Virus record (IMG/VR): IMGVR_UViG_3300021791_000009 | Coordinates: 1 to 25,340 of that record | Direction: 5' to 3' (one strand) | DNA: 25,340 nucleotides | Source: a virus | Taxonomy: Duplodnaviria; Caudoviricetes | In this document: positions 3,431-15,968 of the stretch, in pieces | How the letters are laid out: each line of letters opens with the position of its first letter | Numbering within the stretch: the first letter of the stretch is position 1 | Notes under the pieces: generated by a model | Told to the model about the DNA's origin: nothing | What the model saw: only the letters and a program-made list of their open reading frames with translations | Databases searched by the model: none | Made by a program: the position numbers and the translations under genes

Positions 3431-3638
3431 GGGGGACGACGGTCAGGTTTGGAGGTGTATAGACTCCCAAACCACTAGGCTGTCCAAGATAGAGGACATC
3501 ATCTGGAAGGGTAACGGTGACAGCCTGACGACACAGGTTGTGAAGCTGAGGACAGAACTAAGGACACTCGCCGTGGTGGCGACACTGCTGATACCTGTTG
3601 TTATGAAGGCTCTAGACCTATGGTTAGAAAAATCCTAG
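3351..3638 (+). CDS. Coiled-coil protein with C-terminal transmembrane helix (holin-like?)
   Basis: Heptad-like N-terminus and a single TM segment LAVVATLLIPVVM. Confidence 0.5.
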   Translation: MQRTQMEDLERRVILLEEKAKSELGDEGDDGQVWRCIDSQTTRLSKIEDIIWKGNGDSLTTQVVKLRTELRTLAVVATLLIPVVMKALDLWLEKS

Positions 3639-4504
3639 CACTGCTGTTGCTGCCACTTCTTACCCTAGGCTCGGAGCGGGATCAGGATTCACGCCCGTCG
3701 TACTACAACGCCACGGTTAAGATCGGCGGCTGCACAGGGGTCATCATCAAGACTGGACCAGAGGTGTCTGTTGGCATCTCCGCACAGCACTGCACCCCAG
3801 AGGTCGGTGCAATCACCAGCTTCACGAACCCTGATGGTACTGGCGGATACGCTAGGTGGGTGTCCGAGGATACTTCTAGCGACCTGTCTCTATTCAAGGT
3901 GTGGTCCAAGGACACCAAGCGAGTGATGGCGGCTGTTATGCCGGACAAGGAGAAGATCGCCAAGGAGTGTGAAGGGTGGGGCTACCCGAAGGGCAGGGGG
4001 CCAAGGTGGAAAAAACTCGAGTACGAGGGCAAGTTCCACATCACAAGCCTGAAAGCCGAGAGGTTCCAGTTCAGGGTCACGGACGGCGACTTCAATAACG
4101 GTGACTCCGGTGGTGGCGTCTATTGCAACGGCAAGCTAATTGGAATAACTTCCCACGGGTCGGAAAAACATAAGCACCTGTTTTCATGCACCAAGTCGCA
4201 GCTGAACGCTTTCCTGAAAAAGAACTCTGACAAGCTGTCAGCCGGTGAAGTAGAATGGGACGGGAGCAGGGTCCCGCCTCTCGACTCGGATAAAGATAGG
4301 ACCATTGCCTTGAAGGGGGTGATCGAAAGACTATCTAAGATGGAGAGCGAAAACGAAAAGCTGAGAGAGATAGTTCGCCGGATTGCGAACACGCCGACAA
4401 GGGTTCAGATACTGGACCCCGTCAGTGGGAAGGTTTTAGCAGACGAGTCCTATCCGTTAGGGACCCCAATTAGGCTACTGTTGCCAGAAATCAGGAGAAA
4501 GTGA
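3620..4504 (+). CDS. Secreted trypsin-like (S1) serine protease
   Basis: Signal peptide; catalytic triad motifs SAQHC, DLSL, GDSGGG; C-terminal coiled coil. Confidence 0.85.
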   Translation: MVRKILALLLLPLLTLGSERDQDSRPSYYNATVKIGGCTGVIIKTGPEVSVGISAQHCTPEVGAITSFTNPDGTGGYARWVSEDTSSDLSLFKVWSKDTKRVMAAVMPDKEKIAKECEGWGYPKGRGPRWKKLEYEGKFHITSLKAERFQFRVTDGDFNNGDSGGGVYCNGKLIGITSHGSEKHKHLFSCTKSQLNAFLKKNSDKLSAGEVEWDGSRVPPLDSDKDRTIALKGVIERLSKMESENEKLREIVRRIANTPTRVQILDPVSGKVLADESYPLGTPIRLLLPEIRRK

Positions 4505-4863: not shown

Positions 4864-5298
4864 GTGTTTGGGAAGAGCTTACGGGACAGGATGGCAGAGA
4901 AGTGGTTCGGGGTGAGGATGGCTGAGGAGGCCCTGAAGGTTTCAGACCTTGCGGACCTCATGCAGATCAACAGGGACGTTGTTCGCGCTCACAACAAGAC
5001 CCACCTCGAAAACTACGAGGAAGGCGACATGGGCAACATTCATGTAGGAGATGTCGTGAACAATACAAACGGAGAGCCTAAGGCTGGGTCGGCGGGAATT
5101 GGAAAGGGCTTGCTAACCACCATGCTGGTGTCTGCACTGGCAAGCGGCGGCGGGCTGGCCTACCTGATCCCAATGCTTCTGGATCGCCCTGTAGCTGAAG
5201 CGGGGTCTGGGTACACCCTTGGTCTAGGAAAACCTGACACGAAACAGGAGAAGAAAAGTGAAGTACCAAAACGCAAGGGGCAAGATCAGGAACGGTGA
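4864..5298 (+). CDS. Hypothetical membrane protein
   Basis: RBS GAGGAGG before GTG; TM segment LLTTMLVSALASGGGLAYLIPML. Confidence 0.6.
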   Translation: MFGKSLRDRMAEKWFGVRMAEEALKVSDLADLMQINRDVVRAHNKTHLENYEEGDMGNIHVGDVVNNTNGEPKAGSAGIGKGLLTTMLVSALASGGGLAYLIPMLLDRPVAEAGSGYTLGLGKPDTKQEKKSEVPKRKGQDQER

Positions 5299-5815
5299 TG
5301 TTCTGGCTTTCCGTGGTACTCGTTGGTACTCGTGGGTCATCAGGTATTTCACGCAGTCGAGAACGTCTCATGTGGGGTTCGCCCTGTGGATGCACGGACG
5401 ACTGTGCTGCATGGAAGCTCTTGAAGGTCGCGGCATCAGGGTGATCCCAGTTTCCAAATGCCTGAGTGACGGCGACTGGATTGACTGGTACGAGCTATAC
5501 AAGCCAGAGGACAGCAAGATCGACAGGCAGAAGCTGGTCAAGCATGCCCTGTCACACTGGGGAAAGCGTTACGCGCCGTGGTGGCAGTTCGCCCGCACTT
5601 GGTGTCGCTGGCTTCGCAGGTACATGGACAAGAAGGGCAGTCCACTGGACGTGGACCCAGACAGGTTCTTCTGTTCTGAGTTTGTGCTCACGTGTCTCAG
5701 GATGTCCGGCTACATTGGCGAAGGGTTTGCCTCTAATCTCAAGCCAGCGGCAGCATCGCCGGGCGACATTGTTGAGCTTCCCTGCCTGCACCGGATGGGG
5801 AAGCTGGAAATCTGA
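5258..5815 (+). CDS. Permuted papain-like NlpC/P60 amidase (YiiX/YaeF family)
   Basis: GDVLAFRG, SHVG (His) and FFCSEFV (Cys) in circularly permuted order; SPGD at the C-terminus. Confidence 0.8.
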   Translation: MKYQNARGKIRNGDVLAFRGTRWYSWVIRYFTQSRTSHVGFALWMHGRLCCMEALEGRGIRVIPVSKCLSDGDWIDWYELYKPEDSKIDRQKLVKHALSHWGKRYAPWWQFARTWCRWLRRYMDKKGSPLDVDPDRFFCSEFVLTCLRMSGYIGEGFASNLKPAAASPGDIVELPCLHRMGKLEI

Positions 5816-7481: not shown

Positions 7482-7512
7482 GGACCGGTGCGGGTGTCCC
7501 CAACACCGGCCC
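7482..7512 (-). other. 31-nt GACA-capped intergenic hairpin (copy 1)
   Basis: GGGCCGGTG..GGG-GACA-CCC..CACCGGTCC; same length and ends as 8766-8796. Confidence 0.5.
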
Positions 7513-7518
7513 CAAAGG

Positions 7519-8199
7519 TTAGATGGTCTGGGTTACTTCTGCGAAGTAGTGGTCAGCCCCTACTGGCTGTTCAACAGGTCTAAGAACACTTCCAACCGCA
7601 GGAATGACAACACATGGACGCCTAAGCGTTTCTGGGCTGTCCGTCTTTGCGATCATGCAGGAAAGCTCCACCGCCTCAGACGCCTCCACAGACCACACAT
7701 CGTCGTTTGTGAAGGTTGTGAAACCGGCAGGACCCGCCCAAGGTGTGTAATGGACGGTATGTGTCCCCGGATCCGAGTCTGAGAGTCCCGTCGCTCCGGT
7801 CTGTCTCCAAATCCCCGAGGCTCCGAGAGATGGATGGTCGTCCACCTTCACGCGAGCAGAGATGAGGTCAAATGTGGCTCGGAAGATGTCGATCCTGTAG
7901 TAGGTGTCAGATAGCAACTTGCCGCCCTCTAAGGTTGAGTGCGGAAAGTGCCACTGTCCCCCTATTGCGATGACATCTCCGAGCACACGAGCGTGGACGT
8001 TCTTGCGCCCCTCGTCGTTTGCCCTCTCCCTGCCAGCCTCGCTGACTTGGAATGATGACGCCCCCATCCAGACATGCTGGGCGTGGGCTATCACCTTGCC
8101 GTAGTGAAAGTCGGGGAGTTCCCGCGTGGAGGTATCCTCGTTCCGAATTGAGAACAGCCTCTTGTGACTGTTCCAGTAGACTCCACATTTCAATCCCAT
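7519..8199 (-). CDS. Conserved phage hypothetical protein
   Basis: VYWNSHKRLFSIR...AGRERA...RKNVHA motif recurrent in phage proteins; ATG after AAAGGAG. Confidence 0.65.
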   Translation of the reverse strand: MGLKCGVYWNSHKRLFSIRNEDTSTRELPDFHYGKVIAHAQHVWMGASSFQVSEAGRERANDEGRKNVHARVLGDVIAIGGQWHFPHSTLEGGKLLSDTYYRIDIFRATFDLISARVKVDDHPSLGASGIWRQTGATGLSDSDPGTHTVHYTPWAGPAGFTTFTNDDVWSVEASEAVELSCMIAKTDSPETLRRPCVVIPAVGSVLRPVEQPVGADHYFAEVTQTI

Positions 8200-8267
8200 A
8201 ACATTTCTCCTTTCGCTTGGTAGGGCCAAGCACCCTGCCCGCATTGCGACGGTCTGTCGCTCTGGGC

Positions 8268-8320
8268 AAAAAGCGGGGCGGGGGAATTGAACCCCCGCTC
8301 AGGCCGTGTCCTTCCCGCTC
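8268..8320 (-). ncRNA. Anticodon-less tRNA-like element
   Basis: GCGGG/CCCGC acceptor-like stem coaxial with GCGGGGG-TTCAATT-CCCCCGC T-arm (12 bp to the T-loop); D-like hairpin AGG-ACACGG-CCT; followed by TTTTT. Confidence 0.55.
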
Positions 8321-8327
8321 GTCCGCA

Positions 8328-8726
8328 CTACTCTCGTTCAGTCCTATCGGGGTGCGTGAGGCGTGCCAGAAGCTCGTCTCTTACATCCTCGAAGGCTTTG
8401 TTGAGCGTATGTTGCGGACTGGTAATGCCATCGGCAATGCCGCTGGCCTCGTCCTTCTCGGCAGGGGGGTTGTCGTCTTCAACGAGAGCAGGATTCCAGA
8501 ATTTCATCCTGATAATCCCAAGTTTCTTGCGGGTCCGCACGGTAACCTTCAACCCGTTGCGGGCGGCGTAGTTCCACGCCGCGCCGATCAAGGATTGCGT
8601 GGTGCAGTCAAAGTCCTTGTCTTTGACTACTTCCCAGATGTTCCCATCTGACCATACTTCCCACGGGTACTTGGTGTTCCCGTGTGACGATCCTCCCTTG
8701 AAGAAGGACTTCACCTTGCACGCCAT
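8328..8726 (-). CDS. Hypothetical protein, paralogue of 8806-9108
   Basis: KYPWEVWSDGNIWEVVKDKDFDC; ATG after AAAGGAG. Confidence 0.7.
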   Translation of the reverse strand: MACKVKSFFKGGSSHGNTKYPWEVWSDGNIWEVVKDKDFDCTTQSLIGAAWNYAARNGLKVTVRTRKKLGIIRMKFWNPALVEDDNPPAEKDEASGIADGITSPQHTLNKAFEDVRDELLARLTHPDRTERE

Positions 8727-8765
8727 ACTTTTCTCCTTTCGTGTTAGAACAAGTAATTGGCGATT

Positions 8766-8796
8766 GGACGGGGTGGCCTGTCGGCACACCCCGCCC
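8766..8796 (-). other. 31-nt GACA-capped intergenic hairpin (copy 2)
   Basis: GGGCGGGGTG.GCC-GACA-GGC-CACCCCGTCC. Confidence 0.5.
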
Positions 8797-8805
8797 CTAG
8801 ACTCC

Positions 8806-9108
8806 TTAGAACGGTGGAGTGTTGCCAGCGTCAGTGGACGTGTCCTCAAGACTCTCGTCTTCGGTCAAGTCCCTGTCGCTGAAGCGAAACCTGATGCTTT
8901 CTGTCTCTGGTAACGTCATAGAGACAACCTTCTTTCCGAAGCTCTTGGCGATGGAATACAGGCCGTTACGGAAGCTGTTGAGCGAGCAGTCGAAATCGTC
9001 TCCTCGCTCCACCTCGTACGTCTGTCCATCGGTCCATTCGTCCCACGGGTATTGGTGGGAGCGGCCCCTGTTGGTTACCAGAAGTTCAGAATCAATCACC
9101 TTCGCCAT
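8806..9108 (-). CDS. Hypothetical protein, paralogue of 8328-8726
   Basis: QYPWDEWTDGQTYEVERGDDFDC; RBS AAAGGAG. Confidence 0.75.
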   Translation of the reverse strand: MAKVIDSELLVTNRGRSHQYPWDEWTDGQTYEVERGDDFDCSLNSFRNGLYSIAKSFGKKVVSMTLPETESIRFRFSDRDLTEDESLEDTSTDAGNTPPF

Positions 9109-9289
9109 TTCTTCTCTCCTTTCTCAAACGCAGTAACTCGGTCACATCGGACTCGTAAATAGTTACCGCTTCCAGTTCAGTGAGTCCTAGGGACAAGTAC
9201 CTGTCCTTGTACCCGTCCCAGTTCCAACCACGGAAGAGCATGAACTCCTCGTGGTTACTCAGGGCATCGATTCCTTCAATGCCTTTCAC
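9092..9289 (-). CDS. Hypothetical protein
   Basis: RBS AAGGAG upstream, overlaps the next gene. Confidence 0.55.
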   Translation of the reverse strand: MKGIEGIDALSNHEEFMLFRGWNWDGYKDRYLSLGLTELEAVTIYESDVTELLRLRKERRNGEGD

Positions 9290-9302
9290 AACCTACTCCT
9301 TT

Positions 9303-9395
9303 CTAAGAGTGAAGGGCCTTGCCGCTGATGTAGCCAACTACAACGGCTAGTAAAACAAGGCCCACGATTACAAACCCAGCTTCCTGAGTAAGCAT
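9303..9395 (-). CDS. 30-aa single-pass membrane peptide
   Basis: MLTQEAGFVIVGLVLLAVVVGYISGKALHS after GGAGAGAAAGGA; first ORF downstream of the ribozyme at 9428-9499. Confidence 0.55.
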   Translation of the reverse strand: MLTQEAGFVIVGLVLLAVVVGYISGKALHS

Positions 9396-9427
9396 TCCTT
9401 TCTCTCCTGATGGTAGTTGATGTGAAT

Positions 9428-9499
9428 GGAGCATTGGTCGACTTACGCCTCTCGGCTGCGAGTGCCAGCATCGCCACGTGGCGGCTGCTCCGTGATGCC
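9428..9499 (-). ncRNA. HDV-like self-cleaving ribozyme (Rz8)
   Basis: P1 GGCATC/GATGCT, P2 GGAGCA/TGCTCC, P3 GCC/GGC, L3 GCCACGT, P1.1 GG, P4 with GCC-GAGA-GGC, J4/2 CCAA. Confidence 0.8.
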
Positions 9500-9526
9500 T
9501 GCCCCCTTGCGGGGGCGTGAAGTTAG

Positions 9527-10612
9527 TTACGCAGCCATGGCGATCTTCCGCCATTCGCTGGGAGTCGAGTCGACCAGCCGACCACCGAACTGTTCAAGCT
9601 CAGTGGCTCTGTCGTAAGACTCCCGATTCTCAGCAGCACGGGTGATGGCGTTTGCCATACCCCACTGGCTGAGGTCGCCGCCAGCAATCAGGTTGGACAT
9701 CACGTCGTCGGTTTCGTCCTCGGACAATCCGAAGCGACGTTGCACAACCTCAATCGCCTTCTGGGGTTTCCCCTCAATGCGACGGTCGGTAGTCTCACGA
9801 AGCTGGTCGAGCCTCTCCTCCCAGCTACTCTGGTCAAAGATAGCGTCGACTGCGTCCCTGATTTTTGCCCAGAAGGCTGCGTCATCGAGCTTCCGGGTGG
9901 AATCCTTGTAGAACTCCTGAGCAGCATCGACCGCGCCGATGCCCGTACTACGTCCAAGGTGGGTCTTGCGAACCGATGTTGCCTGAACCATCCCGTTCGT
10001 GCAGACGAGCCGATAAAGAAACTCGTCAATCCTCAGGGATCCCTGTCCGACCTCACTGTTGGACACAACAATCCCGCCCTGAACCGTGTCGCCAACGGTG
10101 ACATCGCCAACCAACCTCGGGCTTGTGGCCTTGAGGTAGAGGCGTGACTCCGTTAGCTCGCACGACTTCATTTCGAGATCGCTGTCTTGGAACGCTGGCA
10201 TTATCGCGCCAAGCAGTTCGTAGTTGTCCAGAGGACGGTAGCGATCAGAGAGGAACGCACGAACCGTGTTGGTTCTGGCGTCGGTTCGGACAAGACGCTT
10301 CTTCCCGCCATCATCATTCCACCAGTGGTTGATGTTGGTGGCGAGAAGACTCGGGCACTCGGCCCGCATCCTGTCGTAGTACGCCTTTGGAATCTTCGCA
10401 GCGGCAGCGATCTGCCCGTGGGCGAGATCAGTTGCCCAGTGGGGCGGCAGGTCATCCGAGATGTCGAATAACACGCCACCTTGATGCACAGGAAATGGTT
10501 CCCGTGCGGCGTCGGCTTCCATTGCTCTGGTGTTGACCACAAAGTCCTTCCCGTTGTCCCGCAACGCTTGGACCTCTTGGGCAATCTCAGGCATATTACG
10601 TCCCAACTTCAT
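9527..10612 (-). CDS. DUF932-domain phage protein
   Basis: FLSDRYRPLDN, SNSEVGQGS and RLVCTNGM motifs. Confidence 0.8.
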   Translation of the reverse strand: MKLGRNMPEIAQEVQALRDNGKDFVVNTRAMEADAAREPFPVHQGGVLFDISDDLPPHWATDLAHGQIAAAAKIPKAYYDRMRAECPSLLATNINHWWNDDGGKKRLVRTDARTNTVRAFLSDRYRPLDNYELLGAIMPAFQDSDLEMKSCELTESRLYLKATSPRLVGDVTVGDTVQGGIVVSNSEVGQGSLRIDEFLYRLVCTNGMVQATSVRKTHLGRSTGIGAVDAAQEFYKDSTRKLDDAAFWAKIRDAVDAIFDQSSWEERLDQLRETTDRRIEGKPQKAIEVVQRRFGLSEDETDDVMSNLIAGGDLSQWGMANAITRAAENRESYDRATELEQFGGRLVDSTPSEWRKIAMAA

Positions 10613-10680
10613 AAGTCTCTCCTTTCGAGAGTGGTGAGGGGGATAACCTGCCCCCTCTACAGGTGCCAGCTATTACTGGC

Positions 10681-10759
10681 TGAGAGCCTCAGCTTAGGCC
10701 GTCATGGTTGTCACTCGGGCCGCACAACACCACCACTTGACGGTGGCTCTCATGGTGTC
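10681..10759 (-). ncRNA. HDV-like ribozyme, CPEB3-like 1-bp P1.1 type (Rz7)
   Basis: P1 GACACC/GGTGTT, P2 TGAGAGCC/GGCTCTCA, P3 ACC/GGT, L3 GTCAAGT, GT, J4/2 CTGA. Confidence 0.75.
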
Positions 10760-10760
10760 T

Positions 10761-11089
10761 GACGAGTGGGCGGTAAACGACGCCCGACCTGTAGATAACC
10801 CACAGACATCGGCGGTTCCACCGCCTGCTGCTGCTAGCAGGGCCTCTACTGAGAACGGAAGACCGCATGACCCTCGAGGGACGTGAAGGGACCTGTCGCA
10901 GTAGTAATGCGGTAGCTGGAGCAGTGAGTAAGAGCGTGTGTCATCCGTGGTCACCTAGGCTCACACGGCGAGGGAAACGTCTACTGCACTACCAGCCCTA
11001 TCCGATTCTAAAGGAGGGAGGTATGTCTCGTTTCGGAGTCAATATAGTCTCATGGTTCTCAATCGGGCGGCGATTACCGCCCACTCATC
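10761..11089 (-). ncRNA. Candidate ~330-nt structured ncRNA closed by a long terminal stem
   Basis: GATGAGTGGGCGGTAA (11089-11074) pairs with TTACCGCCCACTCGTC (10776-10761); many nested stems; ends 1 nt before the Rz7 cleavage site. Confidence 0.6.
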
Positions 11090-11106
11090 CTTTTGTTTAT
11101 AAGGGC

Positions 11107-11224
11107 AGAGAGGAGAGTGCAGCGAGGCTTCACCCTCGGCCCGTTCTCACTTCGAGAAGGTAGTGCGGCTCGTTTTCCGCACGATTTTCACCCTCGGTCA
11201 CGCACTCGCTGCACTCAATCTCTC
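11107..11224 (-). ncRNA. Candidate multibranch RNA with two CCGAGGGTGAA repeats
   Basis: 12-bp perfect stem 11115-11126/11205-11216 enclosing two hairpins and the 11-nt repeat at 11129-11139 and 11187-11197. Confidence 0.5.
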
Positions 11225-11272
11225 GTTCCTACACTATGTATCGACACACAGTGCAGGGGACTTTACTTGTTT

Positions 11273-11488
11273 CTACTCAGTTTCGACTTTTTCTTGGGTT
11301 GGCTCGAAGCCAAAGTAAAACCGTGGCATGTGTTGGAACTCAAGGGAGCCGATCACATTGTCGGCCTTCCTCGTGACCACGACGAATGGGGCAGCGAACT
11401 GCCGCACCTCGTAGTCCTCTTGGAGTTCCTTCGTATCCCACACACGGCCTGCCAATCCTTCTAGCTGTTCCCTGTTCAAGTCTTGCAT
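11273..11488 (-). CDS. Conserved small phage protein
   Basis: RBS AAAGGAG; 71 aa with WDTKELQEDYEV..FAAPFVVV.RK.D...GSLEFQH.PRFY. Confidence 0.75.
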   Translation of the reverse strand: MQDLNREQLEGLAGRVWDTKELQEDYEVRQFAAPFVVVTRKADNVIGSLEFQHMPRFYFGFEPTQEKVETE

Positions 11489-11521
11489 CTGAGTCTCTCC
11501 TTTGTGAAGGGAAGTGAAACA

Positions 11522-11574
11522 GGAGCATTGGTTGGTTATCCAGCACTGCCTCGTGGCGGCTGCTCCGTAGTGCC
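11522..11574 (-). ncRNA. Minimal (P4-less) HDV-like ribozyme (Rz6)
   Basis: 53 nt: P1 GGCACT/AGTGCT, P2 GGAGCA/TGCTCC, P3 GCC/GGC, L3 GCCACGA, GG, linker ATAACCAA, J4/2 CCAA. Confidence 0.8.
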
Positions 11575-11691
11575 TAAGGCGTGACCTGAGGGCTGGGTTT
11601 TCTGGCTGGCATTGAGCAACAGAGCTTTGCCGCCGTCAACTTGCTTCACCTCGTCCCACCAGTTCGTGATGGTAGGTCAAGCCTCATCTTG

Positions 11692-12018
11692 CTACTTGCC
11701 GTCAATCCGATTGATCTCGAAAGGCTTGCTACCCACCTTCGGGTAGACCAGCGTTCCGTCAACGTTACTGACCTGAGTGTCCTCGGACACAACCCACCAT
11801 ATCTGGGCCTCCTTGACCTTCAAGGCTCGCCCCCTGATCTTCTTGAGTTCGGCCTTAGCCTCCTCAACTGTGTCGCCAATACCGTAGTAGTTGGCGACCA
11901 TGATCAGGATCTTGGTGAAGTTGTGTCTCATGGGAATGCGGTCTTCCGCATCCACAGGCGCACCAACAGGGTCCGCTTCGTAACCCGTGTAGGGCTTTGA
12001 TCTCTTGATTGCGTCCAT
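11692..12018 (-). CDS. Hypothetical protein
   Basis: RBS GAGGAG, 108 aa. Confidence 0.7.
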   Translation of the reverse strand: MDAIKRSKPYTGYEADPVGAPVDAEDRIPMRHNFTKILIMVANYYGIGDTVEEAKAELKKIRGRALKVKEAQIWWVVSEDTQVSNVDGTLVYPKVGSKPFEINRIDGK

Positions 12019-12044
12019 AGCTTCTCTCCTCTTGAGAAAGTGAT

Positions 12045-12107
12045 GAGCATTCGTTCTCGGCTCACAGGCCGTCCAACACCGCCACGGGGAGGCTGCTCTT
12101 TGGTGTC
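12045..12107 (-). ncRNA. HDV-like ribozyme (Rz5)
   Basis: P1 GACACC/GGTGTT, P2 GAGCA/TGCTC, P3 GCC/GGC, L3 TCCCCGT, GG, P4 CGGC/GCCG, J4/2 CGAA; close to canonical HDV. Confidence 0.88.
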
Positions 12108-12150
12108 ATCCCTACCCCATGTATCGACACATGGGGCAGGTCACTTGAGA

Positions 12151-12477
12151 CTATTCTTCATCAAGTAATGGACATCCGTACTCGTCAACCACGGTGACCC
12201 CGCGATCCCTGAGTATCCGACAGGCTTGCTCGCTCGCCCTCGCAAAAGCACTCCTTGCCACACGCTGGGGAGTAGGCTCCCTCAGGAGTCGGTGGAGGTG
12301 CAGTGCTATCAGCGTTCCACAAGTCTTGTCGCAAAACTCAATGACCTTCAGGTCACCATCGCTGCCGCCCTCGTGCGTTAGCTTGTCGCTAAGCGAGGAC
12401 TTCCTTGGTTCGCCACACCAACTGGCGAAGCGAACAGGATCAGCAACGGTAATCCATCGTCTAATGATGTCAAACAT
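12151..12477 (-). CDS. Hypothetical protein
   Basis: ATG (MFDIIRRW) after GAGGAG; the longer ORF-track start runs through the ribozyme. Confidence 0.6.
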   Translation of the reverse strand: MFDIIRRWITVADPVRFASWCGEPRKSSLSDKLTHEGGSDGDLKVIEFCDKTCGTLIALHLHRLLREPTPQRVARSAFARASEQACRILRDRGVTVVDEYGCPLLDEE

Positions 12478-12505
12478 ATCTCTGTCTCCTCTTGGGGAAG
12501 TGATT

Positions 12506-12576
12506 GAGACGTTAGTCGGCTTACGCCTTGCGGCCGCGAGTGCCAGCACCACCACGTGGAGGTGTCTCTTGGTGCC
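12506..12576 (-). ncRNA. HDV-like ribozyme (Rz4)
   Basis: P1 GGCACC/GGTGCT, P2 GAGAC/GTCTC, P3 ACC/GGT, L3 TCCACGT, GG, P4 with GCC-GCAA-GGC, J4/2 CTAA. Confidence 0.88.
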
Positions 12577-12624
12577 TGAACAGGGGCAAACCTGATGGTA
12601 GTAAGGTCCGCCCCTGTCCGTTCT

Positions 12625-13002
12625 CTACTCCCTGTTCTCAAGTAGGTCGTCATACAATCCAGCCGATGCGTACGCATCGTAGATAGTGTCGAGTTGGGTC
12701 TTGAGTGTCTGACTTAGATTGGTTGTCATGCCGTATTTATGCCCGCTGGTGTCGTAGCAGGTCAATTCACCCTCAACCATTTCACAGGTGAGGCTTGCCG
12801 AAAATGTGTCGGACCCGATGAATGACCCACGAGCGAACTCTCTCGAAACGAGCAACCCGTCGTCAGAATGCTCAATCTCCCAATCTCTCCACGTCACGGT
12901 GTCGTTTGCCACCGGAACCAATGTGCATCCTTCTCGATAGCCACTGACGACTTCGAGATGGTTCTGCGCTTTGGTCTTGGCGTTACTCGGCAAGAATTTC
13001 AT
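12625..13002 (-). CDS. Hypothetical protein
   Basis: RBS GAGAGGA, 125 aa. Confidence 0.7.
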   Translation of the reverse strand: MKFLPSNAKTKAQNHLEVVSGYREGCTLVPVANDTVTWRDWEIEHSDDGLLVSREFARGSFIGSDTFSASLTCEMVEGELTCYDTSGHKYGMTTNLSQTLKTQLDTIYDAYASAGLYDDLLENRE

Positions 13003-13031
13003 GATGTGTCCTCTCGTAAGGGGAAGTGAAT

Positions 13032-13108
13032 GACTCGTCAGCTTAGGCCGTCGTAGCTGTCGCTCGGGCCGTACAGCAGCACCACCGTGAAGGTGAGTCG
13101 TCGCTGCC
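13032..13108 (-). ncRNA. HDV-like ribozyme, CPEB3-like type (Rz3)
   Basis: P1 GGCAGC/GCTGCT, P2 GACTC/GAGTC, P3 ACC/GGT, L3 TTCACGGT, GT, J4/2 CTGA. Confidence 0.75.
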
Positions 13109-13144
13109 TGAGGGGCTGATGGTAGTCAGCCCCTCTGTTCTTCT

Positions 13145-13402
13145 CTACTCGGGGAACTTGATATGACGTCCGATCCAATCGTCTATTGACGATGAGGATA
13201 TCTTCGCGAGAGCCTGATCGGCAGCCTGAAATAACGGGATTACGGCAAGGACCTCGGGGCCGCCCATCACCTCGACAACCGCGTTGTGCAGTTCCCGTTC
13301 AGTGATGATGCCCTTGTTGTATAGCCCCTGCTGTTTCTCCAGCACCTCAATGGCCCTGTCAAGTTGTTCAATCTTGATCACAGGCTGTTCTCGGTGGTTC
13401 AT
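13145..13402 (-). CDS. Hypothetical protein
   Basis: ATG (MNHREQP) after AAAAGGAG; 85 aa, helical. Confidence 0.65.
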   Translation of the reverse strand: MNHREQPVIKIEQLDRAIEVLEKQQGLYNKGIITERELHNAVVEVMGGPEVLAVIPLFQAADQALAKISSSSIDDWIGRHIKFPE

Positions 13403-13429
13403 GTCTAGTCTCCTTTTGGGGAAGTGAAT

Positions 13430-13510
13430 CGAACCGCTCAGCTTAGGCCGTCTTAGCTGTCGCTCAGGCCGTACAACAGCCACCACTTGAAGGCGGGTTC
13501 GCTGGCTGTC
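13430..13510 (-). ncRNA. HDV-like ribozyme, CPEB3-like type (Rz2)
   Basis: 7-bp P1 GACAGCC/GGCTGTT, P2 CGAACC/GGTTCG, P3 GCC/GGT, L3 TTCAAGT, GT, J4/2 CTGA. Confidence 0.78.
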
Positions 13511-13535
13511 TGTTGGGCGTCCCTGCCCACCAGTG

Positions 13536-13721
13536 CTAGGCACTGGCTCCTAGATTTGCTAGATGCTTGCAACAGGTGAAGCCCTGCCGGAACTTACGAA
13601 ACCGCTGCGAAAAGCACGAGCAGTCAAGCTGCCCGTTTGGCTTCCGCGTGATGTCGTAGTGCCTGTCACCTGACGATGACCGCACGGTTGCGATGACTTC
13701 ACGTTTCTTACGTTGCTTCAT
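13536..13721 (-). CDS. SWIM zinc-finger protein
   Basis: SSSGD.HY.I and CSC-x-CKHL SWIM motif. Confidence 0.75.
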   Translation of the reverse strand: MKQRKKREVIATVRSSSGDRHYDITRKPNGQLDCSCFSQRFRKFRQGFTCCKHLANLGASA

Positions 13722-13749
13722 AGCTCTCTCTCCGTGGGAAGTGTTAAGG

Positions 13750-13820
13750 AACCTGCCTCATCAGGCCGCAGGCGGTTAGTCCTGCGACAAGCCCCACTGA
13801 GGGGGCTTTCGGCTAGCTCG
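13750..13820 (-). ncRNA. Type II hammerhead ribozyme
   Basis: GCC-GAAA-GCCCC(CTCAGT)GGGGC-TT|GTCGCAGG(ACTAACCG)CCTGCGGC-CTGATGA-GGC. Complete catalytic core; predicted cut between 13789 and 13788. Confidence 0.85.
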
Positions 13821-14151
13821 CAATCGTCGTGGTTTGAGTTGTCTGACATACACTCTGAATATCGAAGGGCGGGTTGTTTTTCTTCTTGCGTCGTCGTCGC
13901 TTCTTGCTCTTGCTCACGACGGGCTTCGGCGGGGTGTCGTTCTTCTTCTTCGGAGCAGGCGGGGGGCTTGGCTTGCGGCCGTTCTTACTGGGCCGCGTTG
14001 TGCGGTGAGTCTTCACCACACGCTTCGCCTTCCGCTTTGCCGATCTAGATTTACGAGCACCCTTGTTGATCCCATCGAAAGCAGTATCAAGCAGCCAGAT
14101 TGCTACAAGAAGCAAAACAAGACCGATCTCGATAATGATTAGCGTTATCAT
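13813..14151 (-). CDS. N-terminally membrane-anchored, highly basic protein
   Basis: Hydrophobic N-terminal 22 aa, then a Lys/Arg/Pro-rich tail; first gene of the early operon. Confidence 0.6.
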   Translation of the reverse strand: MITLIIIEIGLVLLLVAIWLLDTAFDGINKGARKSRSAKRKAKRVVKTHRTTRPSKNGRKPSPPPAPKKKNDTPPKPVVSKSKKRRRRKKKNNPPFDIQSVCQTTQTTTIAS

Positions 14152-14182
14152 TTTCTCGTACCTCTCAGAAGTGTGAACTCGT

Positions 14183-14257
14183 GTTGATTAGCTTAGGCCG
14201 TCATCGGTGTCCCTCAGGCCGAACAGCAGCGCCACTAGAAGGCTCAACTTTGCTGCC
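14183..14257 (-). ncRNA. HDV-like ribozyme, CPEB3-like type (Rz1)
   Basis: P1 GGCAGC/GCTGCT, P2 GTTGA/TCAAC, P3 GCC/GGC, L3 TTCTAGT, GT, J4/2 CTAA. Confidence 0.78.
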
Positions 14258-14556
14258 GGACCACTGGGTTGGTACAATGTCTAAGACATCGAGCAAGCCC
14301 AGTGGCCTCACTTCGTAAGGAATTGAGATTGAGACACGTTCGGTGGTTACGATCCCACAGGCTCTACAGCCCAGCCGCTTTGAAAAATCCATTCAAGGCT
14401 CCGAACGCTTTGGCTTCAACCCGCCCGTATCCAGTTGGATGCTGTGTAGCATGGGTCACAGAGGCCCGCCTCCATGCTGCGGACCTGCTTTGAGTAAAGC
14501 CAACGGTAGCGACATCCCATCATGGGGGCTTTCCGCCTCTTCGCGATCCGTCGCTG
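14258..14556 (-). ncRNA. Candidate ~300-nt structured leader RNA
   Basis: Consecutive multibranch stems (AGCGAC/GTCGCT; TTGGCTTTA/TGAAGCCAA; CGTTCGG/CCGAACG; CCACTGGG/CCCAGTGG) between the promoter and Rz1; no convincing ORF. Confidence 0.5.
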
Positions 14557-14881: not shown

Positions 14882-15130
14882 ATGGCCCGCTGGTTCGTTC
14901 TTACGTTTGGTGGTATTGCCTTCCTGCTGGCCGCTTTGGTGGGCCAGCTAGTGGCTGTAGTGGTATGTTCCGAGGGGGACCCAACCCTTATCCTGTGTTC
15001 CATTGTCGTCGGCAACAGTGCTGCTACGACGATGCTAGTATTCTGGTGCCACTATGCGGATCGCATGTTGCGAGCCGAGTATTGGCGAGAACTGGGCGGA
15101 AAGCCCAACAGGAGGAAGAAGGATGCGTAG
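14882..15130 (+). CDS. Small two-TM membrane protein
   Basis: RBS GGAGG, two hydrophobic segments, basic C-terminus (holin-like topology). Confidence 0.6.
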   Translation: MARWFVLTFGGIAFLLAALVGQLVAVVVCSEGDPTLILCSIVVGNSAATTMLVFWCHYADRMLRAEYWRELGGKPNRRKKDA

Positions 15131-15968
15131 GGACCCGTCACTCAGGTTGGTCGAGGTATTGGCCGCATTGGCAGCTGTTTCGGTAATGGCTGCTTATACG
15201 ATGGCCCACGACCAGAAGCTGCCGAAGGATGTTCCGGCTTACATGCAGGACATCAGCGTAACGATCAGGGCGGGTTTCTCGGAAGGCAGCGGCGTTGCCA
15301 TCAGTAGAGGCGATCAGACGTTCGTATGGACGGCGGGGCACGTGGTGGATGGGTTGCGTAAGACGCGGAAGGTTACGGACCCGAAGACGGGGACCCAGCG
15401 GACTATTATCGAGTTCGACGACGCCAAGATTCTAAAGACGCTTGTGGAGGGCGGCAGGACGGTTGGCAGGCTGGAGATGGACGCCGAGGTGATTCGTTAC
15501 TCGGACGCCGACAACGGCCACGATCTCGCCATCCTTCGTGTCCGCAAGAAGGGCTTTATCAAGATCAGCGCGATCTTCTACGACGAGGGAAAGCCGCCCA
15601 AGCTGGGAACCCGCCTCTTTCACGTGGGCTCCCTACTTGGCCAAGTGGGCTCGAACAGCATGACTTCAGGTATCGTCAGTCAGCACGGTCGCTTGATCGG
15701 CAAGGTAACCTTCGACCAGACGACGGTAACGGCCTTCCCCGGAAGCTCGGGTGGCGGCGTATACTTGACTGACGGTCGATATGTAGGGATGCTTGTCCGT
15801 GGGGCCGGTGAGGGTTTCAACCTGATCGTCCCTGTTCGCAGGATGCGTAAATGGGCCAAGAACGCCAACGTCCTCTGGGCACTTGACCCTCGAGTAAAGA
15901 TGCCCTCTGAGGATGACATGAAGAAGATTCCTGTCGAGGACATCGGGGCTGACTTTGGAGGGAAGTAA
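15123..15968 (+). CDS. Secreted trypsin-like (S1) serine protease
   Basis: GSGV, WTAGHV, DLAIL and PGSSGGG motifs; signal-like N-terminus from ATG 15123. Confidence 0.88.
   Translation: MRRDPSLRLVEVLAALAAVSVMAAYTMAHDQKLPKDVPAYMQDISVTIRAGFSEGSGVAISRGDQTFVWTAGHVVDGLRKTRKVTDPKTGTQRTIIEFDDAKILKTLVEGGRTVGRLEMDAEVIRYSDADNGHDLAILRVRKKGFIKISAIFYDEGKPPKLGTRLFHVGSLLGQVGSNSMTSGIVSQHGRLIGKVTFDQTTVTAFPGSSGGGVYLTDGRYVGMLVRGAGEGFNLIVPVRRMRKWAKNANVLWALDPRVKMPSEDDMKKIPVEDIGADFGGK

Follow-up and report, generated by a model that had tools for sequence, protein, structure and literature searches.

The phage RNAs manA, ROOL and GOLLD form RNA-only assemblies whose purpose is obscure. manA was listed as probably cis-regulatory (Weinberg et al., 2010; PMC2864571), a label that is repeated in the paper on S-CREM1 (PMC9964418) and under which the RNA is still catalogued. 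In vitro, manA was described as assembling into 8-, 10- and 60-mers, RNA-only cages that form via kissing loops (bioRxiv 10.64898/2026.07.01.735769). In the account of Kretsch et al. (2025; PMC12286853), the large phage non-coding RNAs ROOL and GOLLD form RNA-only multimers partly via palindromic loops, and palindromic kissing loops bridge copies of OLE and of GOLLD. Self-cleaving RNAs have been described at the borders of phage transcripts as well. Theta ribozymes, minimal HDV-like ribozymes that lack P4, lie within a few bases of the 3' end of a structured RNA, follow tRNAs in gut phages, and were proposed to make those ends (Kienbeck et al., 2024; PMC10879173). Perreault et al. (2011; PMC3088659) reported clustered hammerheads around protein genes that divide a long phage transcript into pieces the size of genes.

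Here, we analyzed a 25,340-base IMG/VR virus record from an uncultured marine phage (about 57% complete), hereafter the window. Its plus strand carries terminase, capsid and protease genes, and its minus strand, from ~14,300 down to 6,700, carries small genes, many with a self-cleaving RNA in front. No cultured phage was close, with a terminase identity of at most ~31% among the 10 matches listed. At least half of the words of the region were present in eight sequencing runs from seven studies, and seven of the eight runs were labelled marine or seawater. Neither a sigma-70 promoter nor an intrinsic terminator was found between 10400 and 11600. The plus strand also has two trypsin-like protease genes (3620–4504 and 15054–15968) in one small phage fragment, together with a C92 peptidase gene (5258–5815).

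Within the minus-strand region lies RNA X, a 329-nt structured non-coding RNA (10761–11089, −) that we present as a candidate new phage non-coding RNA family in a modular, ribozyme-punctuated cassette: an orphan structured phage RNA, and hence of a known kind, with an uncatalogued fold. Rfam gave no meaningful match on RNA X at gathering or E-value thresholds. The first-pass annotation, made from the sequence alone, had not recognised the RNA as tmRNA, RNase P RNA, SRP RNA or 6S RNA, and each of these exclusions held. ARAGORN returned 0 genes and no tmRNA model matched; no RNase P or SRP model matched either; and the 6S model (RF00013), like the Ms1 model (RF02566), gave no match at E ≤ 10 while the controls scored. 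ROOL and GOLLD resemble RNA X in being large phage non-coding RNAs. They are, however, two to three times longer and often located near tRNA islands (PMC12286853), whereas RNA X has no Rfam match and the window contains no tRNA gene by ARAGORN. We found no literature description of RNA X or of the swappable manA slot described below. Four motifs and two record ids were absent from the readable supplements of Fremin et al. (2023; PMC10690425), and RNA X may be among the ~8,500 DNA-virus candidates of that study.

The whole RNA folded more stably than expected on the minus strand (z = −5.98, versus −3.87 on the plus strand). Much of this folding signal is due to the closing stem, P1: the core of the window copy without this stem reached z = −1.8, with 9 of 200 shuffles equally stable. 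Core z-scores of the four homologues were −1.5, −0.4, −2.1 and −4.4 in the sense orientation, against −0.4, −0.6, −0.3 and −1.4 in antisense. The modelled pairs comprised 27 G-U cells and 0 A-C cells, which favours the minus strand, the G-U count being biased by a structure derived from the same sequences. A function on the plus strand (AGGGA repeats, CsrB-like) was considered and rejected on this G-U pattern and on the sense of the manA-like RNA that occupies the same slot in a relative.

P1 is formed by a 5' arm at 11061–11089 (−) and a 3' arm at 10761–10789 (−), with 24 aligned pairs, four of which show a two-sided change among the homologues. On the minus strand, we confirm the previously reported 16-bp outer stem, which includes one G-U, and its 9-bp extension, which is kept in all four homologues. 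Also as reported, a single A (10760) lies between the stem and G1 (10759), the first base after the predicted cut of the adjacent ribozyme. In T7 early RNA and in pre-rRNA, RNase III stems bracket a cargo RNA with a long duplex that contains small internal loops; P1 is a similar predicted duplex around a cargo.

Among the inner stems, the first-pass list fared unevenly. All of its stems exist as window sequence, but as alternatives to one another, not as a single structure. Not all of them survive in the three other homologues; those that do are UCCGA/UCGGA and the stems that make up P2 and the outer portion of P4. UCCGA/UCGGA and GGCUGG/CCAGCU are paired in all four sequences, and UGAGAAC/GUUCUCA is retained, partly via re-pairing (7, 7, 5 and 5 of 7 pairs in the MAFFT register). 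CGUGUG/CACACG is broken in two relatives (6, 6, 5 and 5 of 6 pairs) and CUGUGG/CUACAG in all of them (6, 5, 5 and 5 of 6). ACCGCAU/AUGCGGU (7, 3, 2 and 4 of 7) and CCUGCU/AGCAGG (6, 5, 4 and 4 of 6) turned out to be specific to the window. The energy of our consensus model lies 14–21 kcal/mol above the best fold of each sequence.

The comparison rests on four distinct and closely related RNA X sequences: the window, L008 (identical to L009 and L028), L011 and L025. A search with the neighboring DUF932 gene recovered four viral loci, and a pattern scan of metagenomes added L025 and L028, the only true cases among its six matches (four by chance). The RNAs of the relatives measure 333–354 nt and share 74–76% identity with the window overall and ~90% over a 134-nt core. 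Two-sided changes occurred in 8 of 87 pairs (P1 has four of them, and P2a, P4, P3a and P3c have one apiece; 4 of the 8 inside the core), and 343 of the 348 cells of the consensus model (98.6%) were paired. A count of eight was matched by 2 of 500 shuffles, which ignore relatedness, and slid controls gave 0–1. Given this limit of the shuffles, and a model fitted to the very sequences on which it is scored, we regard the covariation support as moderate. The spacing between conserved blocks is frame-shifted in six of nine intervals, and the longest stop-free frames differ among the homologues; there is therefore no conserved reading frame, and the proposed non-coding nature of the region stands, with frame-breaking indels between homologues. 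The adjacent DUF932 DNA is 83–93% identical (third codon positions, leaving out L025, 80% and 92%). Since the core, at 90% identity, is near this background, "invariant" carries limited weight in what follows.

No RNA X homologue was found outside this clade in phage records, GTDB or related records. BLASTN of RNA X against 50,697 phage records gave no match, and GTDB scans returned 0 DNA matches and one distant DUF932 locus. A pattern scan of viral contigs gave four matches, three true and one by chance (L014); a further scan gave two, one true and one by chance (L023). In 50 records among 78 terminase-related loci, a DNA search recovered the three known RNA X records and one weak 19-nt match. 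R1, a model of the core with 172 positions and a separate positive control, found 0 copies in 46 further related records. On the combined evidence, we are fairly confident that RNA X exists as a structured RNA gene.

The conserved core arm (10879–11003, −; ~90% identity over 134 nt) comprises a long irregular helix, P4, with a side hairpin, P5, and is closed by a tentative helix, P6. P4 has one two-sided and two one-sided changes, and P5 and P6 are invariant. The apical loop of P4 (10953–10960, −) presents an invariant self-complementary CCUAGG, or a CUAG tetraloop, in all four homologues, with a mean unpaired probability of 0.63–0.67. The P3 domain (10791–10849, −) folds in all four homologues and has two two-sided changes; it consists of a stem, the invariant CUGCUAGCAG (10831–10840), which is a palindrome or CUAG hairpin, and a terminal hairpin whose sequence and length are replaced in each homologue, yet which still folds. 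The two self-complementary CUAG loops are the most distinctive conserved features of RNA X: CUGCUAGCAG and CCUAGG are both kept in 4/4 homologues, and their self-dimers are calculated at −16.6 and −8.0 kcal/mol, respectively. However, a CUAG loop on a 3-bp stem necessarily gives a palindrome, and neither palindrome has a covarying switch. Both CUAG hairpins, like P5 and P6, are without variation and thus carry no covariation information. The small hairpin P2a (11025–11040, −), formed by UCCGA/UCGGA, has one two-sided change and 85% of its cells paired; its loop could possibly pair instead with 11001–11005 as a pseudoknot.

Immediately after RNA X lies an HDV-like (CPEB3-type) ribozyme (10681–10759, −; Rz7 in the first-pass annotation) that belongs to the repeat family D1, has orthologues in L008 and L010 and is predicted to cut 5' of G10759. 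It matched, at G10759, a descriptor that we built from general features of HDV-like ribozymes (nested P1/P2/P3 pairing, a 7-nt L3 and a catalytic C in J4/2). The descriptor gave six matches on the minus strand and 0 on the plus strand; nine of ten shuffles gave 0, and one gave two. The G1 positions of the six (14257, 12576, 12107, 11574, 10759 and 9499) are placed before small genes. Rfam gathering scores miss all HDV-like ribozymes between 6700 and 14300. The descriptor missed two further D1-family copies, near 13510 and 13107 (−). The first L3 position of HDV-like ribozymes is canonically U; it is U in the L008 and L010 orthologues, and G in the 10759 copy and in two other window copies. A type II hammerhead candidate (13747–13814, −; Rfam 32.1 bits against a cut-off of 37) precedes a 61-aa gene.

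A strong stem ends 1–6 nt before G1 in five of the six descriptor-positive ribozymes, P1 being that stem for RNA X, which fits a design in which every product of cleavage is closed off by a protective stem. The ribozyme had been proposed to set the 3' end of RNA X. A cut there is predicted in the window and in L008, but L011 and L025 lack an HDV-like ribozyme directly after RNA X, so that the ribozyme is absent in two of four homologues and is optional. The stem, not the ribozyme, is therefore the constant boundary. Like Theta ribozymes, the 10759 ribozyme is HDV-like and lies within a few bases of the 3' end of a structured phage RNA; unlike them, it has a 33-nt P4 region, stands after a 329-nt RNA that is not a tRNA, and belongs to a series that precedes genes. 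Given this P4 region and the lack of a tRNA, we did not class it as a Theta ribozyme. If the predicted cut occurs, ribozyme-made 3' ends in phages would extend from tRNAs to larger RNAs. The arrangement also recalls the hammerhead cluster of Perreault et al. (PMC3088659), in that several self-cleaving RNAs would cut a long transcript into gene-sized pieces; the window differs in that most of them are HDV-like, with a single candidate type II hammerhead, and in that one of the released pieces would have a non-coding RNA cassette at its end.

In L010, a near-identical closing stem at the same locus holds a manA-like RNA instead of RNA X (RF01745, 51.2 bits, E = 1.6 × 10–10, below the 55.2 cut-off), with the orthologous ribozyme within a few bases after it. 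L025 carries RNA X and then a manA-like RNA (51.9 bits, E = 6 × 10–12) in tandem, each in its own stem. Both manA-like RNAs (L010:1588–1757 and L025:801–986) are divergent, score just under the Rfam cut-off and sit in a carrier stem. All six carrier stems that we compared are long duplexes of −44 to −55 kcal/mol. Because L010 and L025 carry manA in the same kind of stem, we interpret P1 as a reusable carrier for free-standing RNAs. Moreover, the ribozyme would sever the L010 manA from the next gene, which favors a free RNA over a cis role. The manA unit of L025 is flanked by a 14-nt direct repeat, whereas L011 lacks manA and has the repeat once; judging from these sequences, L011 may be the product of manA-unit loss from an L025-like arrangement. 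L025 has a GC-rich fold (1007–1080) with no Rfam match that lies between manA and the DUF932 leader, the place taken by the HDV-like ribozyme in other relatives; this fold could be another self-cleaving RNA.

The slot is thus a natural swap experiment, with two folds, one slot and defined ends. We considered whether RNA X is an enlarged manA, and rejected this: RF01745 gave no match at E ≤ 10 in three RNA X records (G000, G001 and G004; positive control G003, 51.2 bits), R1 gave none in the manA copies, and all 16 local alignments of RNA X with manA scored no better than chance. The CUGAAUAA internal loop and the terminal GGG-loop-CCC hairpin, present in the L010 and L025 manA copies, are absent from the RNA X alignment. 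With no detectable manA likeness, the shared slot does not imply a shared function. The two RNAs are alike in being marine phage orphan RNAs at the same locus, in the same kind of carrier stem (L010 and L025), with exposed conserved loops that could kiss. RNA X differs in being ~100 nt longer and in lacking the conserved CUGAAUAA segment. With regard to the kissing loops through which manA oligomerizes, RNA X has self-complementary loops. Among the 50 terminase-related records searched, one had manA. BLASTN of the L010 manA against phages gave chance matches only, as did, by eye, the nine matches of a manA-aimed pattern scan of viral contigs, whose gap range was too long for L010.

We propose that RNA X is probably a free-standing phage RNA made in two steps. 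Self-cleaving ribozymes would cut the early minus-strand transcript, and the 10759 ribozyme would thereby release the 3' end of RNA X, a step that the sequence supports. The 24-bp P1 would act as a reusable carrier that protects the cut end: the stem is established by comparison, and we infer the carrier role from its association with different cargoes and its presence where no ribozyme follows. Both ends would probably be set by a host nuclease that cuts double strands, such as RNase III, or by trimming with exonucleases. Taken together, we regard these two steps as likely. In a third step, the released RNA would accumulate as a stable folded particle that acts through its exposed conserved loops. 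Most likely, copies would be linked through the CUAG loops to form dimers or larger assemblies made of RNA only, as with manA in vitro, and these might serve as a scaffold or sponge during early host takeover. Granted the first two steps, we put this third one at somewhat short of an even chance. The self-assembly mechanism as a whole is our best explanation and a tentative one, with its prospects likewise below half; we rank it first among functions because of the conserved self-complementary CUAG loops, the manA cages and the palindromic bridges of OLE and GOLLD. The most far-reaching version is that this clade runs modular non-coding RNA cassettes (a carrier stem with or without a ribozyme, and manA, RNA X or smaller inserts as cargoes), and that RNA X is an undescribed family, interchangeable with manA, which forms RNA-only particles via CUAG kissing loops. 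In that full form, we consider the proposal rather doubtful.

After self-assembly, we rank a protein sponge, then an anti-Shine-Dalgarno antisense RNA, a passenger and a polymerase decoy, in this order. As a putative sponge or decoy, a role also suggested in the first-pass annotation, RNA X would sequester a defence nuclease or an RNA-binding protein of the host through its CUAG loops and repeated UCCC/UCAC tracts, with no self-assembly. The candidate binding sites would be the two invariant CUAG loops, a third CUAG/CUUG-like bulge in 3/4 homologues and several UC[CA]C tracts predicted to be unpaired (probability 0.85–0.94 at RNA positions 113–117 in all four), and the location among small early genes is consistent with such a role. 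However, P6 can engage two of the UCCC tracts in pairing within RNA X, and the phage has only distant terminase relatives, which point to no host; we think this reading unlikely. The antisense reading goes back to the first-pass annotation, which saw in a CU-rich loop at 11008–11034 the complement of a ribosome-binding site plus AUG. The strand actually occupies 11009–11026 (−), and it would mask GGAG and AUG on phage or host mRNAs, in the manner of C-rich-loop sRNAs such as cuckoo/CcsR or RsaE. It is mostly unpaired, and CAU and CUCC, 6 nt apart, are kept in 4/4 homologues. Against 32 hand-picked phage start regions, the 18-nt loop gave a mean of −10.4 kcal/mol versus −8.0 for shuffled loops, only ~1% of 300 shuffles being as good. 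This slight advantage did not extend to the largely conserved first 14 nt, for which about 10% of shuffles were as good and which is not significant, and no start region stood out. The variable tail that completes the Shine-Dalgarno match differs in all three homologues, and since this best-matching part is unconserved, the antisense reading is weak. Its strongest genome-wide matches, its own antisense aside, were mostly to G-rich stretches outside the start regions tested, exact matches to the loop numbered 0 in viral contigs, no Rfam sRNA family matched, and the other 300 nt would be left unexplained. We judge an antisense role quite unlikely.

A passenger would require less of RNA X: the fold would merely stabilize or process the upstream message as a cis element, or be a decaying insert, with no function as a free RNA. 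All ribozymes here but one have a stem in front, core conservation is little above background, L010 does without RNA X, and the 46 further related records yielded 0 homologues, all of which this reading accommodates. Nevertheless, short hairpins serve that purpose elsewhere in the same genome, the slot is also used by a known non-coding RNA family, and the core retains compensatory pairs and fixed spacings where adjacent hairpins are wholly replaced; we hold a mere passenger to be improbable. The consensus model can also be drawn as a P1-P2-P6-P4 rod with a central bubble, of a length similar to Ms1 (304 model positions), and such a rod could mimic an open promoter as an RNA-polymerase decoy of the 6S/Ms1 kind. 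The failure of both models to match while their controls scored argues against this, as do the extra branches P2a, P3 and P5 and a bubble whose 3' side is the least conserved part, making a decoy more improbable still. Finally, the 27-nt inverted arms are 89% complementary and adjoin the DUF932 gene, and might bound a DNA-level element (an invertible segment, an origin or a single-strand hairpin). All four copies have the same orientation, the arm mismatches include G-U wobbles on the transcribed strand, and the manA-like insert of L010 resembles RNA X in neither orientation, so that we give a DNA-level element very little chance.

Contigs from RNA libraries of three studies cover parts of RNA X (10878–11029, 10887–11028, 10828–10952 and 10989–11274). 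Their depth is 2.5–4.6, and they may derive from DNA; because they are unstranded and the runs were chosen with this region, we take them as a faint hint of transcription only. No two of the contigs end at one place without loose ends, and one continues through the upstream cassette into other phage-like sequence. Two RNA runs had no contig outside RNA X over 7500–14400, which, as the runs were chosen with the region, is no evidence of selective expression. The contig on 10828–10952, from run X11, has a loose end with a further version of the P3 hairpin, in which the 3' domain is possibly shortened.

The flanks of RNA X are structured as well. The predicted downstream cleavage product carries a leader (10613–10680, −) and the DUF932 gene (9527–10612, −; PF06067, E = 7 × 10–10). 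The leader is conserved, with hairpins in the window and four relatives; the last of its three hairpins covers the ribosome-binding site, and an upstream ACCUG could pair with CAGGU of the middle loop as a possible pseudoknot, with possible autoregulation. Just upstream of RNA X is a second stem-closed cassette (11108–11224, −), folded in the window, L008, L010, L011 and L025: its outer stem is the same and its insert unrelated in each of these five relatives, the multi-branch insert of the window containing CCGAGGGUGAA twice. Close behind the stop codon of the 71-aa gene upstream (11273–11488) comes a hairpin with a conserved GUCGAU loop (11228–11257, −), and a similar one at ~12111–12140 (−) also stands directly after a stop codon. 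A scan for the GUCGAU motif found eight loci, all within this phage clade. We had considered the motif as a promoter or operator; re-pairing of the flanks in each relative led us to read it as a hairpin instead. CUACCAUC occurs six times on the minus strand (13125, 12601, 11675, 9416, 6648 and 21408 of the window) and 0 times on the plus strand, twice as the loop of a hairpin just 5' of a ribozyme. Lastly, a pyrimidine tract, UCACUUCCC, is repeated just upstream of the AAGGAGA ribosome-binding sites of minus-strand genes (for example, those starting at 11510, 12500 and 13425).
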